A stretch of DNA of 64,000 nt from Gemmatimonadota bacterium. Lineage in GTDB: Bacteria; Gemmatimonadota; Gemmatimonadetes; Palauibacterales; Palauibacteraceae. Below are positions 1 through 6,000 of this stretch, one piece after another (the first letter of the stretch is position 1; each line of letters starts with the position of its first letter). The DNA lies in contig OY762926.1 in the NCBI GenBank assembly GCA_963666735.1, positions 1,984,001 to 2,048,000 of the forward strand, in the 5' to 3' direction. Position numbers: made by a program.

Positions 1-3000
1 GTGCGCGAGGAGACGGAGGCATCCGTCACCTTCGCCGGGGAAATCGGCCTCGCGAGGTTCGCGGTCGACCGGGCGGGAGGGCACACGAATGTCCGGGTGG
101 AGACGGATCGCGTCGTGGGCCTCGACGTGACCGACCTCGCGAAGCGTTTCCTCTACACGCTCCGGAACGTCCATTGACACCGGAGGCCGCATGAACGCCA
201 TCACGGTACGCCTCATCATGCCCGACCGCTGGCTCGAGCACGTGGCCGAAATACCGGCCGACACGACGGTCGCGGACGCCAAGGCCTTCGGCATCCGCGC
301 GATGCTCCAGCGCTCCTCGGACGACCCCGGCGACTTCTACACCGAGTTTTCCGAGCGCCGCATCCGCGATGAGACGCGCACCCTCGCGGAGGTGGGGATC
401 GCGTCGCGCGGAGTTCTCTCGATTCGGGCCTACGACCTCGGCCACTACCCGCCCTTCCGGGGCTAGCGGGACGGGCGGTTGAAGTAGCTCCGCGTCTCCC
501 GCCATACGACGCCCGACAGGAGCAGGAGGCCCAGCAGGTTCGGCGCCGCCATGAGGCCGTTGAGGATGTCGGAGATCAGCCACACGACATCGAGTTCCAC
601 GACCGCCGCGAACCCGACCACGAGCACGAAGGCCAGCCGATAGGGCCGGATCACGCGTTCGCCGAAGAGGTAGGCGAAGCTGCGTTCCCCGTAGTAGGAC
701 CACCCGAGCATCGTGCTGAAAGCGAAGGTCGCGAGGCTGAGCGCGACGATGATGTCCCCCGCACCCGCGAGAAGACTCGTGTCGAAGGCCAATTGCGTCA
801 TGTTCGCGCCCTCGGCGCCCGACTGCCACGCCCCCGTCGTGAGGATCGCGAGTCCCGTGAAGGTGCAGACGACGATGGTGTCGATGAACGTCTGTGTCAT
901 GGAGACGAGGGCCTGCCGCACGGGCTCGCGCGTCTGCGCCGCCGCCGCGGCGATCGCCCCCGTGCCGAGCCCCGATTCGTTCGAGAAGATGCCGCGCGCG
1001 ACCCCGAAGCGCATCGCCTGGAGGACCGTGTAGCCCAGGGCCCCGCCGGCCACCGCGCGCCCCCCGAACGCGTGCTCGAACACGAGCCGGAAAGCCGCGG
1101 GGATCTCCGCCGCGTTGGATAGGAGGACGACGCCGGCGACGCCCATGTAGAGGACGATCATCGTCGGCACGATGACGCTCGCCACGCGCCCGATGGACCG
1201 GATCCCTCCGATGATGACGAGCCCGACCGCGCCCGCCGCGGCGAGACCCGTGATCCAGTGCGGCAGCCGAAACGATTCGTTCATCGCGTCCGCCACCGCC
1301 TGGGACTGGACGCCGTTTCCGATGCCGAACGCCGCGAGCGTCGCGAAGAGCGCGAAGGCGATCGCCAGGCCGCGGCCGAGCCCGCCCCGGCCGAGGCCGT
1401 GCTCGAGGTAGTACATGGGGCCGCCCGCCTTTTCGCCCCGGGAGTCGGTCTCCCGGTAGCGGACGCCGAGCACCGCTTCCGCATACTTCGTCGCCATCCC
1501 GAGGAGTCCCGTCACCCACATCCAGAAGAGCGCCCCGGGGCCGCCCGCGCCGATGGCCGTTGCGACGCCCACGATGTTCCCGGTGCCGACCGTTGCGGCC
1601 AGCGCGGTCATGAGCGCCTGGAAGTGCGAAATGTCGCCCTCGCCGCCGGGTTCGCGGCGCTTGACGAGCGCCAGCTCGAGCGCGTGCCACAGGCGGCGGA
1701 ATTGGAGGCCCCGCAGCAGCAGCGTGTACACGAGGCCCGTGGTGAGGAGGAGGATGATGAGGGGGACGCCCCACACCCAGGCCTGAATCGCCTCCAGGGT
1801 TCCGACTGCGGAAATTGCGGTCACCTCGTACTGGAGGTCATCGGGGGAGCGCGCGCCGGACGCCGCGGCGAGCGGGCCGTGACGTTAGACGCGCCTCCGC
1901 GCCGCCGTCAACGCAACGGGACCGGCATGGCGCCCGGCGCCCGGGTCCGCCGCGCGTCCACTCGGGTCCGCGGCGGGTCCACTTTGGACGGACGGACGCC
2001 TTGCGTACCTTCCCACCGATGGGCGAAGGCCCGTGCACGACCCCTTGTCCAATTCGTTTGATGGGATCCCGCTCTTGAACCAGGATCAGTCGGAAGCCGC
2101 GGCGGGAACGGCCCCGCCGTCTCCGGAGACGCTCGAGACCCTCTCGGGCGCGATCGAGCGGGGACGCCACATCGCGCTCATTGCCGCCGAGGGGGCGGGC
2201 CTCGCGCCGCTCTACGCGGCCGCCGCCGTGCGGGATCTTGCCGCTGGCGAGGCGGGCGGCCGCGCCTTCGTGCTGACCGCGACCGCGGACCGCGCGCGGC
2301 GTTGCGCGTCGCGCATACATGCCGCCGCCCGGGCCGCCGGGCATGAGGTCGTCGTCGTGCCGGGCGCCGCCGCCGGGGCGATCTCGCGGGCCCCGATCCT
2401 CGTCGGGCCCCCGGCCGCCCTGCTGGAAGGGGTGCGAAGGGGCGACATCCCGGCGGGGGCGCTGTGCACCCTGGTCCTCGACGACGTGCGTGCGCTCGAG
2501 CCGGCGCGGGCCGCCGTCGAGGCCGTGGTGCAGACCTCGGGCGAGGGGGCCCGTCGGATCGCGGCGACCCACGCCCGCGATGCGGCGTTCGATGAGTTGA
2601 TCGAACGCTGGCTGCCGCGCGCGCGCCGCTGGCCGAAGGAGCTGTTCGCCGAGCCGCGGGCCGGGGCGTCGGCGGGCGGCCGCGTGGCGGGCACTCCGAT
2701 CGCCGTCGCGAGCCGGGCGACGCGCGAGGGCCGGCTGGCCCGTCTGGCCGAATTGCTTCACGACATCGCGCGGGCCGGCGCGGCCACCGCCGTCAGCGTC
2801 GAGGCGCCCGCCACCGCCGTCGCCGAGGTGAGCACGGCGCTGTCGCTAGCCGGGCTGCAGGTTGCCGACTCCGAGGGAGCCGAAGCGGCCGAAACGGACG
2901 GCGCTGCCGCGGTGCGGGTCGGGGCGTGGGGCGATGTCGACCCCGGCGCCCATGCCGTCGCGTTCGAGCTGCCGCCGGCGCCGGAGCTCCTCAGTCGCGC

Positions 3001-6000
3001 GGCGGAGACAGCCGAGCGCTGCTACGCCATCGTCGACACGCTGCACGAGCGGCAGCTCGAGCTGACGGCGTTGCGGGCCGGGCGGCAGGTCGCACCCCTG
3101 GGCGATCCCGCGGACCCCGCGCTCATGGACGACGTGGCCGCCTTCCGGACCCGCGTCTCCGACGCCCTCGAGCAGCAGGATCTCGCGAGCGGTGCACTCC
3201 TCCTCGCCCCGCTCATCGAAGAGCACGGCGCCGCGCGCGTGGCCGCCGCCCTGGCCGGACTCCTCCGCGGGGTGGACCGGCCGGCGCCTCGGGCCAGCGA
3301 CGCGGCACCCGGCGATGGCCCGACCCGCGACGGGCCGACCCGCGACCGCGCGGGCACACCGCCCGACAGGAGCGCCCAGCGCGCCACGCGGCCGACATGG
3401 ACCAAGGTCTTCGTCGGCGTCGGCAGGCGCGACGGCGCCGGCCCCGGCGACCTCGTCGGCGCCATCACCGGCGAGACATCCGCCGCCGGCGGACAGATCG
3501 GACGCATCGACATCCGGCAGAACTTCACCCTCGTCGACATCGACTCCCTGATGGCCGACGAAGTCGTCCGGGGCCTCGACGGCAGTCAGATCAAGGGTAG
3601 GCAGGTCGTCGCCCGCCTGGACCGCGAGGCCCGGTAAGTCCGATGAGCCCAGGGAGCCCGATCGGCCTGATGCGGCGCCTGTTCGACTTCAGCCGCTTCA
3701 GGGGCCGCTTCCTCGGGGCCGTTGTCTTCACGGGCACCCTCTCGGTCGTCGGGACGATCGGCTTCTCGCTCATGCCCGGGTACAGCCTGTCGGACGCGTT
3801 CTTCATGACCGTGATCACGGTCTCGGCGGTCGGGTACGGCGAAATCCAGACGCTGACCGACGGCGGCCGCGTGTTCGCGAGCTTCATGATCGCCGGCGGC
3901 ATCATCACCCTCGCGATCTGGTTCGCCCTCATCACCGCCACCCTCGTCGAGATGGATCTGGCCCAGGCATTCAAGAGGCGCAAAACAATGAAGAGGATCG
4001 ACTCCACCCGGGACCATGTGATCCTGTGCGGCGCGGGCCGCACGGGCCTCGCGGCGCTAAGGAGGCTCGTCGCCCGCGGCACCCCTTACGTCGCGGTCGA
4101 GAGCAACCCCGCGCACGCCGCCGACGCGCGGAACGCCGACCCGGACGCACTGATCATCGAAGGGGATGCGACGGACGACGACGCGCTGCTGGCGGCGGGG
4201 ATCGACCGGGCGCGGGGGCTCATCGCCGCGTTGAGCGCGGACACCGACAACGCCTTCGTGTGTCTGGCGGCGCGCGAGCTGAATCCGAATCTGACCATCG
4301 TGGGGCGGGCGCGTTCCGAGGAATCGGTGAGCAAGCTCAGGAAAGCCGGCGCCGACCGCGTCGTCACGCCCAATGCGACGGGCGGGATCCAGATGGCCTC
4401 CCTCGTCCTGCGTCCCAACGTCACGCTCTTCATCGATACCGAGACCTCCGGAGACGGCATGGGCCTGCTCCTGGAGCAGGCGTCGGTGGCGGAGACCTCG
4501 GCAGTCGCGGGACTCACGCTGGACGAGGCGCAGATCCCGGCCAGAACCGGGCTCCTGGTCGTCGCCATCCAGCGCGGAGAAGGCGACCGCGACGGCGGCG
4601 ACCGCTTCGTCTACAACCCGGGACCGGACGAGAGGGTGCGGCCCGGAGATCTCCTGGTCGTCCTGGGTCCGCCTCCCAAGTTCCCCGAACTCCACCGCCT
4701 CCTGAGCTGACGCGGACCCCCGAGGCCGGCCTGACGCGGGCCCCGAAGCCAACCCTGCCCGCCCGGGGGGATCAGAGCTTCTCGGGATTCTCGCGGAAGA
4801 AGGGCCGCCACTTCTCCTCGGGCGAGGGCGGGGTGAGCAGGCTCACGACGATCAGGAGGCTGAGCGAGATGAGGACCCCGGGGATCACGATGTAGTCCGT
4901 GGATGCGAAGTCGAATGGATCGCCCCCGATCGTGGCCGTGAAGTTCACGCCGAGCTTGGACAGGGCCGCGATCCCCACGATGCTCCCGAGGCCGCCCGCG
5001 ATACACGCCACCCCACCGAACTTCTGGTACATCCCGCTCTCGCCCGGGATGAGGAGGAAGGTGGGCATCGCGACCCCGATGACCCAGAGGGCGTTGTGGC
5101 CTCCGAGGACCGTCAGGTGTTCCTCGGGAGCCCGGCCGCGATCGCGCCCACGCCGCCGTTGGCGAAGACGAGGTAGGGGAGGCCGATGACGATGCCGAGG
5201 GTGATGATGATCCCGTTGATGAGGTCCACCGAGACGATCGACACCATCCCGGCGAGCGCGGTGAAGGCCACGATCGTAACGGCCGTGATGATCATTCCGG
5301 TCGTGGGCGAGATGGCCCCGTCCGTGACAATGCTCAGGATCCAGCCGCCGCCCCGGAACTGGTAGGCGGCGATCGTGACGTAGGCGAGGATGATCGCGAC
5401 CGTGCCGAGGATGCGCGCCGCCGCGTTGTAGCGCTGTTCGAGGAGGTCCGGGACGGTGTACTTCGCGATCGAGCGCACGCGGGGCGCCAGGTAGAAGGCG
5501 ACGAGCAGGCCGACCCAGGCGCCGAAGGAGAACCACAGTTCCGCGATGCCCGTGCGGTAGGCCAACCCGGCCCCGCCGAAGAGCGACCCCGACCCGATCC
5601 AGGTGCAGATGAGCGTGCCCACGAGGAGCGCCACCGGCACGTTCCGGCCCGCCACCATGAAGTCCGCGTGTCTTGATCTGCCTGGAGCGCCACACGCCGA
5701 TCCCGATGAGGACGAGCGGGTAGGCGTGGCTACTCCCCCTTCGACATCCGGCGCTTCAACTCCTCGAGCATCGCGTCGGCCCGCGCCTCGCGCAGTTCCC
5801 GCTCGGCCACGAAGTCCCGCTGCGGCGCGCCGGCCATCGGGTCGAGCGCTTCATCCACCTGGCGGCGCGCGTCGTCGAGGTCGCTGCTTCCCTCCATCTT
5901 CTCGGCCATGCGGTCGAACGCGTCCGACGAGTCGAGCCGGTCGGAGGAGTGCTGGATCGCCTTCGCGCGCCGTTGCTGCACGCTGAGCGAATCCCGCCGC

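Follow-up and report, generated by a model that had tools for sequence, protein, structure and literature searches.

A DeaD-derived pseudo-helicase family of the class Gemmatimonadetes with eroded motifs and a new arginine patch, putatively an ATP-independent RNA-binding dimer

DeaD/CsdA of E. coli, CshA of Geobacillus/Bacillus and Hera of Thermus are dimeric DEAD-box helicases. In the available text of PMC11850223, the RNA-binding domain (RBD) of Hera, CshA and CsdA is described as the main RNA anchor, while their dimerisation domain gives rise to stable dimers. The protein analysed here, referred to as the pseudo-helicase, has the same folds in the same order, i.e., RecA1, RecA2, dimerisation domain, RBD and basic tail, but its motifs for ATP, for coupling and for RNA contacts of the core are all lost, its IVa helix and motif VI are deleted, and it possesses a new conserved arginine patch and an optional RBD. 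DbpA is described in the available part of PMC8536315 as an active, hairpin-92-dependent helicase without a dimerisation domain. The PF03880 RBD of DbpA/YxiN is shared with the pseudo-helicase, for which DbpA is also the best PDB sequence match, yet the pseudo-helicase does have a dimerisation domain.

Pseudohelicases are, to our knowledge, rare and mostly eukaryotic. Utp25/Def is presented in the available text of PMC9539457 as a eukaryotic protein with a DEAD-box fold whose motifs are vestigial and which has been retained to serve in a non-catalytic capacity, and the definition of a pseudohelicase used for it, namely a helicase fold with lost catalytic motifs, also describes the host protein. 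Utp25/Def nevertheless has an independent origin, belongs to the eukaryotic SSU processome and has neither a dimerisation domain nor a DbpA RBD; its role is backed by genetic evidence, whereas that of the Gemmatimonadetes family is a prediction. D. radiodurans PriA and C. elegans MUT-15 are likewise helicase-derived, ATPase-dead and lineage-wide, and bind nucleic acid as well as partner proteins, although they belong to other helicase families and pathways, i.e., DNA restart and small-RNA amplification, respectively (PMC4504706; bioRxiv 10.64898/2026.09.04.749402). Lopez-Ramirez et al. 2011 (PMC3093544) reported DbpA-RBD genes without DEAD and Helicase_C domains in Gemmatimonas aurantiaca and Treponema, which they described as small and RBD-only (data not shown), and recognised neither a degenerate helicase core nor a class-wide family. 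The gene from G. aurantiaca probably belongs to the pseudo-helicase family, since Pfam detects only the RBD in many members. Our literature searches returned no description of this family and no pseudohelicase derived from a bacterial DEAD-box protein.

The window, i.e., the whole stretch of DNA that was analysed, comprises 64,000 nucleotides, starting at contig position 1,984,001 and not at 1,952,001, from a genome of the family Palauibacteraceae, in which the gene and its neighbours are arranged as follows.

463..1824, minus strand: sodium:alanine symporter gene, divergent neighbour (PF01235; 20/22 Palauibacteraceae loci, 24/130 overall)
2033..3637, plus strand: pseudo-helicase ORF, a single intact frame of 534 aa from GTG
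2045 and 2075, plus strand: other in-frame starts of this ORF
3643..4710, plus strand: TrkA/RCK potassium channel gene, 5 nt past the pseudo-helicase stop (PF02254, PF07885, PF02080; 22/22 Palauibacteraceae loci, 31/135 overall)

The start at 2045 (530 aa) given in a preliminary description of this DNA is an in-frame TTG, but the intact ORF extends from the GTG at 2033. A search of the host genome bore out that this ORF holds its sole DbpA RBD (PF03880 at aa 459-528, E 2e-21 by Pfam). In one RNA run the matching contigs were all short and of low depth, lying close to the 5' end of the gene and in its flanks, a second contained zero contigs for this region, and a promoter and terminator scan gave no signal above shuffles.

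The protein, for which an AF2 model has a mean pLDDT of 85.4 and a pTM of 0.79, comprises the following parts.

2105..2641, plus strand: pseudo-RecA1 (aa 25-203; CsdA RecA1 5GJU, Z 23.6, rmsd 2.1 A over 177 aa; dN/dS 0.22)
2690..3106, plus strand: shrunken pseudo-RecA2 (aa 220-358; SrmB RecA2 2YJT_D, Z 15.3, rmsd 2.4 A over 136 aa; dN/dS 0.49)
3116..3277, plus strand: DeaD-type dimerisation domain of three helices (aa 362-415; PF25399, DeaD alignment, covariation)
3278..3394, plus strand: flexible linker (pLDDT < 50 at aa 419-440)
3395..3625, plus strand: DbpA-type RBD (aa 455-531; dN/dS 0.12; lost in 23 orthologues)

The two RecA-like domains of DEAD-box type proposed previously are supported by this model, by the structure matches and by the family profile, which aligns colinearly with E. 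coli DeaD 6-559 (probability 99.96, E 4.8e-39); the best PDB sequence matches of the profile are, much as had been stated, DbpA (1.6e-32), DeaD, MJ0669 and CshA. In pseudo-RecA2 the IVa helix and the motif V/VI segments are deleted or replaced, and the domain is reduced further in some lineages. The PF25399 match is below cut-off in the host protein (E 4.4e-4) and above it in one orthologue (5.9e-6), both predicted structures model the dimerisation domain as three helices, and P393 and A404 are conserved in 134 and 140 of 142 orthologues, respectively. Mean-field covariation (439 sequences, effective 298) places the three strongest couplings found anywhere in the protein within this domain, while no inter-domain coupling exceeds noise. 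Assignment to a mixed DeaD/DbpA type thus holds for its first half only: the architecture is that of DeaD/CshA/Hera, whereas a DbpA/YxiN identity fails on the dimerisation domain and on NF008744, for which the score is 54.5 bits and the cut-off 524. The tree, in which the pseudo-helicases form a long branch under a simple model, likewise nests them within the DeaD-like group with a support of 97 and separates them from DbpA and from RhlE-like proteins.

At the motif positions of E. coli DeaD, the host protein reads AAEGAGLA (I), ATADRA (Ia), PPAAL (Ib), DDVR (II) and THA (III), while the IVa/V and VI stretches are deleted, so that motifs I, Ia, Ib, II, III, V and VI are all absent. The counts below refer to 142 orthologous proteins from 142 genomes.

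2183..2206, plus strand: degenerate motif I (AAEGAGLA, with Leu57 for the Walker A Lys); GK[TS] in 4/142
2480..2491, plus strand: degenerate motif II (DDVR); catalytic Glu in 0/142
2567..2575, plus strand: degenerate motif III (THA); [ST]AT in 0/142
2996..3007, plus strand: motif VI position (RAAE, arginine fingers gone); equivalents of DeaD R335 in 1/142 and R338 in 0/142

These figures substantiate the previously described loss of motifs I, II, III and VI. By aligned position, the RG of motif V and motif Ib are found in 0/142 orthologues each and motif Ia in one, while the Q-motif Gln, whose position holds Leu in the host protein, is present in 31/142; orthologues with this Gln or GK[TS] belong mostly to early-branching or Longimicrobium-like lineages, and in some lineages the N-terminal region with the Q motif is gone altogether. 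The exact motif counts given earlier were not reproduced, but a result of the same kind was obtained with 263 database proteins, 261 of which score as family members: GKT-like, DEAD-like and SAT-like patterns occur anywhere in 5, 5 and 6 of them, respectively, motif VI in none, and never two together. The protein is thereby predicted to be unable to hydrolyse ATP or unwind RNA, and its core would no longer bind RNA in the DEAD-box way because motifs Ia, GG, Ib, IV, IVa and V are likewise eroded in the family, which counts against the RNA-binding role proposed below. An active helicase with unusual motifs might be read from the label 'ATP-dependent RNA helicase DeaD' that some members indeed carry in databases, yet no substitute acidic or basic residue is conserved across the family at the positions of motifs I, II and VI.

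The pseudo-helicase was found or inferred in 271/283 genomes of the class (96% retention), the exceptions including 3/3 genomes of one small family in which it was not detected, and it was not found in other classes of the phylum (RBD in 0/18 genomes; full profile searched in 12 of those 18). Among the matches listed, comprising at least 80 named loci, full-length motif-less members are all from Gemmatimonadota save two contigs, i.e., one unclassified and one labelled Akkermansiaceae, the latter with the gene order of Palauibacteraceae and probably misbinned. In the ESM Atlas, all matches are either clusters of the family itself or clusters of ordinary DeaD. The family is monophyletic (support 100), its tree follows family-level taxonomy, an aminotransferase gene is syntenic with it in 93/135 loci, and its dN/dS is 0.30 overall (0.12-0.49 by domain), compared to 0.32 for the adjoining channel gene. 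Retention, synteny and dN/dS together argue for a retained biological role and, with the monophyly and taxonomy-like tree, support the earlier view of a conserved pseudo-enzyme whose motif losses extend across the class, its loss of ATPase activity being a prediction from the motifs. Decay of a helicase gene could be seen in RecA2, the least constrained domain and smaller still in some lineages, but it is refuted by purifying selection, and intact frames, dN/dS well under 1, the 96% retention and newly fixed residues speak against it; decay and unusual activity, even taken together, are barely credible. It is well supported that this is the vertically inherited DeaD/CshA/Hera-type gene of the class, turned early into a pseudo-helicase.

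The placement 'usually beside' HU, tdk and coaE genes proved to be lineage-specific. Class-wide, these flank the gene in 63/138, 77/136 and 64/98 loci, respectively, while within 1.5 kb of Palauibacteraceae loci HU is present in 3/22 and tdk in 0/22, and in the host genome all three lie hundreds of kb away. A functional tie to HU, tdk, coaE or the potassium channel was considered and rejected, as neighbours differ between families, and no partner gene is linked to the pseudo-helicase class-wide.

It is conceivable, if very unlikely, that the protein regulates or targets an active DEAD-box helicase as one of its subunits, either in a heterodimer with DeaD via the dimerisation domain or as a cofactor of an RhlE-like enzyme. 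Engineered Hera heterodimers with one dead core do function, according to the available text of PMC11850223, some intact DEAD-box gene was found in 259/283 genomes of the class, and in one taxonomic family an RhlE-like gene lies ~4-8 kb from the pseudo-helicase. Intact DeaD, however, was found in only 74/283 genomes and in 0/24 of Palauibacteraceae, at loci unrelated to the pseudo-helicase, and its copies form a clade neither alone (AU p 0.008) nor with the pseudo-helicases (p 0.001). Furthermore, five genomes of 95-100% completeness carry the pseudo-helicase with no DEAD-box enzyme detected by HMM search, their best CshA-profile matches being partial and of E 6e-18 or weaker (a degenerate motif VI DNA pattern matched as often as its control), and a helicase-partner role is therefore weak as a general function.

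Three positions on RecA1 distinguish the family from intact helicases, none of 32 of which has Arg there.

2159..2161, plus strand: R43, just ahead of strand 1 (Arg 128/142, Lys 2/142; intact helicases Lys 2/32)
2555..2557, plus strand: R175, where the motif III strand begins (Arg 137/142, Lys 3/142; intact helicases mostly Thr)
2618..2620, plus strand: R196, before the last RecA1 strand (Arg 112 and Lys 28 of 142; intact helicases Asp/Asn/Glu 31/32)

The adjacency of these near-invariant residues is supported by covariation, the RecA1 couplings G44-R174, H46-P195, G172-R196, R175-L189 and H46-W200 ranking within the top 21. Acidic proteins or phosphorylated ligands could bind to such a basic patch just as well as RNA, a point against the RNA-holding role proposed below.

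The RBD is absent from 23 orthologues through several independent losses, with at least six state changes in the tree of one taxonomic family, and is thus dispensable in at least these members. All 23 terminate in an Arg-rich tail (18-31% Arg in 16 of them), predicted to be disordered in a modelled structure, and R43, R175 and R196 are retained. Where present, the RBD is the most constrained domain in the host's genus (dN/dS 0.12); it reads GxRDGxxPGDLVGAI, nearer to generic DeaD-type RBDs than to the GKKAKMRPGD of DbpA, and as its first loop differs from that of DbpA, hairpin 92 specificity is not implied. Repeated loss of the RBD would sit poorly with one particular RNA as the essential target, and this also counts against an RNA-binding role.

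We consider it somewhat probable that the pseudo-helicase is an ATP-independent homodimeric RNA- or RNP-binding factor with a new basic patch. The dimer, suggested by homology and covariation, would form via the retained dimerisation domain and hold structured RNA or a ribonucleoprotein, e.g., mRNA or an intermediate of rRNA assembly. The conserved contact with this presumed ligand would be made by R43/R175/R196, which lie at the end of the RecA1 strands opposite to motifs I and III, and the RBD or, where lost, the disordered Arg-rich tail may add affinity. A protein scaffold or adaptor is unlikely but deserves serious consideration: the arginine patch would dock on an acidic surface of a conserved machine (nuclease, RNA polymerase or ribosomal factor), the RBD or tail merely tethering the protein to RNA, as in MUT-15 or D. 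radiodurans PriA. Known pseudohelicases serve as scaffolds, to judge from the available parts of PMC9539457, PMC4504706 and bioRxiv 10.64898/2026.09.04.749402, and the arginines persist where the RBD is dispensed with, but the strong constraint on the RBD where present and neighbours that vary by family, with no partner gene linked class-wide, do not favour such a scaffold.

A ligand sensor is quite improbable; it would either bind ATP/ADP but not hydrolyse it, or recognise a phosphorylated messenger through the arginine patch, and would signal to RNA or to the co-transcribed potassium channel. Three clustered arginines fit a phosphate ligand, the Q-motif Gln and GK[TS] survive in the mostly early-branching or Longimicrobium-like lineages noted above, and the channel gene begins 5 nt downstream in the host genome; this channel, however, adjoins the pseudo-helicase in only 31/135 loci, neither the Q-motif Gln nor the Walker A Lys is present in the host protein, and some lineages lack the entire Q-motif region.

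Returning to the dimeric RNA-binding factor, the retained part shared by the family is the arginine patch on the dead core, and not the RBD, pointing to a repurposed non-enzymatic job. With somewhat less than even confidence, we suggest that the DeaD of Gemmatimonadetes themselves was converted into a near-core factor without enzymatic activity that assembles or holds RNPs in an ATP-free manner. Its function would have shifted to a new arginine site at the rear of the dead RecA1 and would require neither an RBD nor any cellular DEAD-box enzyme; intact DeaD in the class would then represent later lateral re-acquisitions, and the family would be the first of DEAD-box pseudo-enzymes in bacteria, graded from forms retaining the Q-motif or Walker A to minimal ones. 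The pseudo-helicase has been kept more widely than its parent enzyme while often being mislabelled as active DeaD. The family thus offers a natural series in which to ask which DEAD-box functions require ATP, and its three specific arginines and RBD-less natural variants are direct entry points for mutational work in those Gemmatimonas and Longimicrobium species that can be cultured.

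The pseudo-helicase is encoded by an intact ORF with coding-like codon use (GC3 0.90), and Pfam searches returned no match to the DEAD or Helicase_C domains within its 534 residues. The window spans contig positions 1984001-2048000 rather than starting from an offset of 1952000. The following features were identified:

2033-3637, plus strand: pseudo-helicase ORF, 534 aa
aa 459-528: DbpA RNA-binding domain (RBD; Pfam, E 2e-21)
aa 368-413: DeaD dimerisation domain (DD; Pfam, below threshold, E 4.4e-4)

A genome-wide search confirmed the proposal of the preliminary description that this RBD is the only one in the genome, which elsewhere carries a single intact RhlE-like DEAD-box gene (with GKT, DEAD, SAT and HRVGRTAR). 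Candidatus Palauibacter is among the named homologues, whose identities range from 64 to 83%. A profile of 148 family sequences is colinear with E. coli DeaD residues 6-559 (probability 99.96, E 4.8e-39); the alignment is gapped where DeaD has the IVa helix and motif VI. In the predicted structure (pLDDT 85.4), RecA1 matches CsdA RecA1 (Z 23.6, rmsd 2.1 A, 177 aa) and RecA2 matches SrmB RecA2 (Z 15.3, rmsd 2.4 A, 136 aa). The protein therefore has a DeaD/CshA/Hera-like architecture of core, DD and RBD, in agreement with the two DEAD-box-derived RecA-like domains described previously.

Motifs were counted by alignment column in 142 family proteins from 142 genomes (one each) plus E. coli DeaD, on whose sequence they were placed by their standard names and positions. 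The Q-motif Gln is retained in 31/142 proteins, the Walker A Lys in 6/142, GK[TS] in 4/142 and PTRE in 1/142, while TPGR, the motif II Glu, [ST]AT and the motif V RG are each found in 0/142; of the motif VI arginines, the R335 equivalent persists in 1/142 and that of R338 in 0/142, which substantiates the claimed loss of motifs I, II, III and VI. The 28 intact DeaD rows used for comparison score 28/28 by construction, because three of these motifs served to sort them; the pseudo-helicase family was delimited independently of motifs, by trees. Loss is graded across families: f8 (presumably Longimicrobium-like) and f2 retain both Gln and GKT, f5 and f6 retain the Gln, the host family (Palauibacteraceae) has neither, and in some f3, f4 and f7 members the Q-motif region is missing or RecA2 is incomplete. 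A ligand sensor, for which this gradient leaves Gln and GKT in two families and neither in the host family, appears improbable.

Among 301 genomes of the phylum, 283 of them in the class Gemmatimonadetes, the DbpA RBD occurs in 263 and intact DeaD in 74, the latter in 0/24 host-family genomes. Intact-DeaD counts subtracted from RBD counts, plus targeted searches, place the pseudo-helicase in 271/283 class genomes (142 sequence-checked, 129 deduced from counts); in 11 of the rest it was missing or the result ambiguous, and one genome fell outside the check. The tallies of 271 and 74 include four unpublished genomes (G056, G096, G156 and G181), which bear on those tallies only and without which they read 268/279 and 73/279. 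The pseudo-helicase was not found in the other classes of the phylum (RBD in 0/18 genomes). The class-wide spread of orthologues with the same losses is thus borne out by this distribution and by the 142 checked proteins. One contig labelled Akkermansiaceae (locus L194) carries the pseudo-helicase in exactly the host-family gene order and is probably misbinned Gemmatimonadota.

The motif-less proteins form a single clade (support 100), the subclades of which track family codes. Their loci lie in a housekeeping block, with an aminotransferase gene nearby in 93/135, tdk in 77/136, coaE in 64/98, HU in 63/138 and a K+ channel in 31/135, shares that are slightly inflated since only loci with sufficient flanking sequence or a hit enter the denominators. 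The neighbourhood previously given as usual is lineage-specific, and host-family loci instead feature an alanine symporter (20/22) and the K+ channel (22/22). Pooled pairwise dN/dS among ten genomes of one genus is 0.22 for RecA1, 0.49 for RecA2, 0.30 for DD, 0.12 for RBD and 0.30 overall, next to 0.32 and 0.10 for neighbouring genes; in five genomes of another genus, the pseudo-helicase gives 0.23-0.29. Clade, synteny, dN/dS and distribution together uphold the view of a conserved pseudo-enzyme rather than a decaying gene, and decay or cryptic activity is very unlikely. In many f4 genomes (e.g., loci L244-L250), a 1-nt overlap between the stop codon of the pseudo-helicase and the start of tdk (thymidine kinase) suggests that translation of the two genes is coupled in this lineage.

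Other genes in the window include:

191-466, plus strand, and ORF ending at 176: two small conserved Gemmatimonadota proteins without a Pfam family, upstream of the alanine symporter
4772-5658, minus strand: sodium:solute-symporter-like gene broken into two short frames
5730-6539, minus strand: coiled-coil protein, PspA/IM30-like by eye, with no significant Pfam match

One of the small proteins (91 aa) shows a feature-based resemblance to ubiquitin-like TmoB/YukD clusters (0.91), and the other recurs adjoining the pseudo-helicase locus in several families. The symporter-like copy looks internally deleted, because a DNA run of a related strain has 288 additional letters between positions 5017 and 5018. 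The coiled-coil gene is divergent from CsoR-type repressor and copper ATPase genes.

Intact DeaD genes of the class lie at unrelated loci and intermix in trees with Chloroflexota, Planctomycetota, Acidobacteriota and Actinomycetota copies. AU tests rejected intact DeaD as one clade (p 0.008) and intact DeaD plus pseudo-helicases as one clade (p 0.001), an outcome that is provisional given LG+G4 and a long branch. No intact DEAD-box gene was found in 24/283 class genomes. In five that are 95-100% complete (G211, G038, G190, G029 and G065), the pseudo-helicase was sequence-checked and an intact DEAD-box RNA helicase was undetected, the CshA profile matching only partially (best E 6e-18, versus 1e-150 for intact DeaD). 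The pseudo-helicase is probably not a helicase accessory; against this reading weigh the intact DEAD-box gene in 259/283 class genomes and the fact that absences in assembled metagenomes can be artefacts. That it regulates a helicase is given little credence. In f6 only (L037, L039, L042, L044, L050 and other loci), an intact RhlE-like DEAD-box gene lies ~4-8 kb upstream.

The RBD is dispensable. Where f4 genomes lacked a second RBD, inspection of the syntenic locus revealed the pseudo-helicase in 7/7, and 20 further regions yielded 16 more complete RBD-less cases, the other four being cut by contig ends, broken within the RBD or ambiguous. In these 23 proteins from nine genera, a count rather than a frequency because genomes were selected for lacking the RBD, the chain stops after the DD and continues as a tail of 36-221 aa (18-31% Arg in the 16 added cases). 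For one of these proteins, the structure prediction is confident in both RecA domains and the DD helices, and the tail is disordered. RBD presence switches at least six times on the f4 tree, once inside a genus.

At a mean column identity of ~21-28%, the top conserved positions outside the RBD are R43 (Arg 128, Lys 2 of 142), R175 (Arg 137, Lys 3), R196 (Arg 112, Lys 28), P314 (140/142), P393 (134/142) and A404 (140/142). The three basic residues are new to this family: 32 intact helicases from many phyla have no Arg at these positions (Lys in 2, 0 and 1) and usually carry Ala/Glu, Thr and Asp/Asn, respectively. In the model, each lies by the N-terminus of a strand (47-50, 174-179 and 198-200), at the end remote from motifs I and III. 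In the sheet of DEAD-box proteins these three strands lie side by side, and covariation joins their segments (G44-R174, H46-P195, G172-R196, R175-L189 and H46-W200, all within the top 21). R192, by comparison, is structural, since it pairs with E163 and is common to intact enzymes. The strongest couplings of the whole protein lie in the DD (V375-L407, S376-E397 and V368-L390) and show a maintained fold, whose contacts may lie within or between subunits. A protein scaffold is the main rival, with a modest probability. We lean modestly towards a protein without ATPase activity that would dimerise through the DD and hold RNA or RNP by the Arg patch together with the RBD or the tail.

No account of the family turned up in a literature search that reached few subscription papers. 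PMC3093544 mentions, as data not shown, that G. aurantiaca and three Treponema have a DbpA RBD unaccompanied by DEAD/Helicase_C domains, and its supplements may list the gene. Other sources cover a pseudohelicase comparison (Utp25; PMC9539457), other pseudohelicases (D. radiodurans PriA, PMC4504706; MUT-15, bioRxiv 10.64898/2026.09.04.749402) and DEAD-box background (Hera, CshA and CsdA, PMC11850223; DbpA, PMC8536315; see also PMC3695512). The pseudo-helicases constitute a real, conserved and apparently undescribed bacterial family of DEAD-box pseudo-enzymes.
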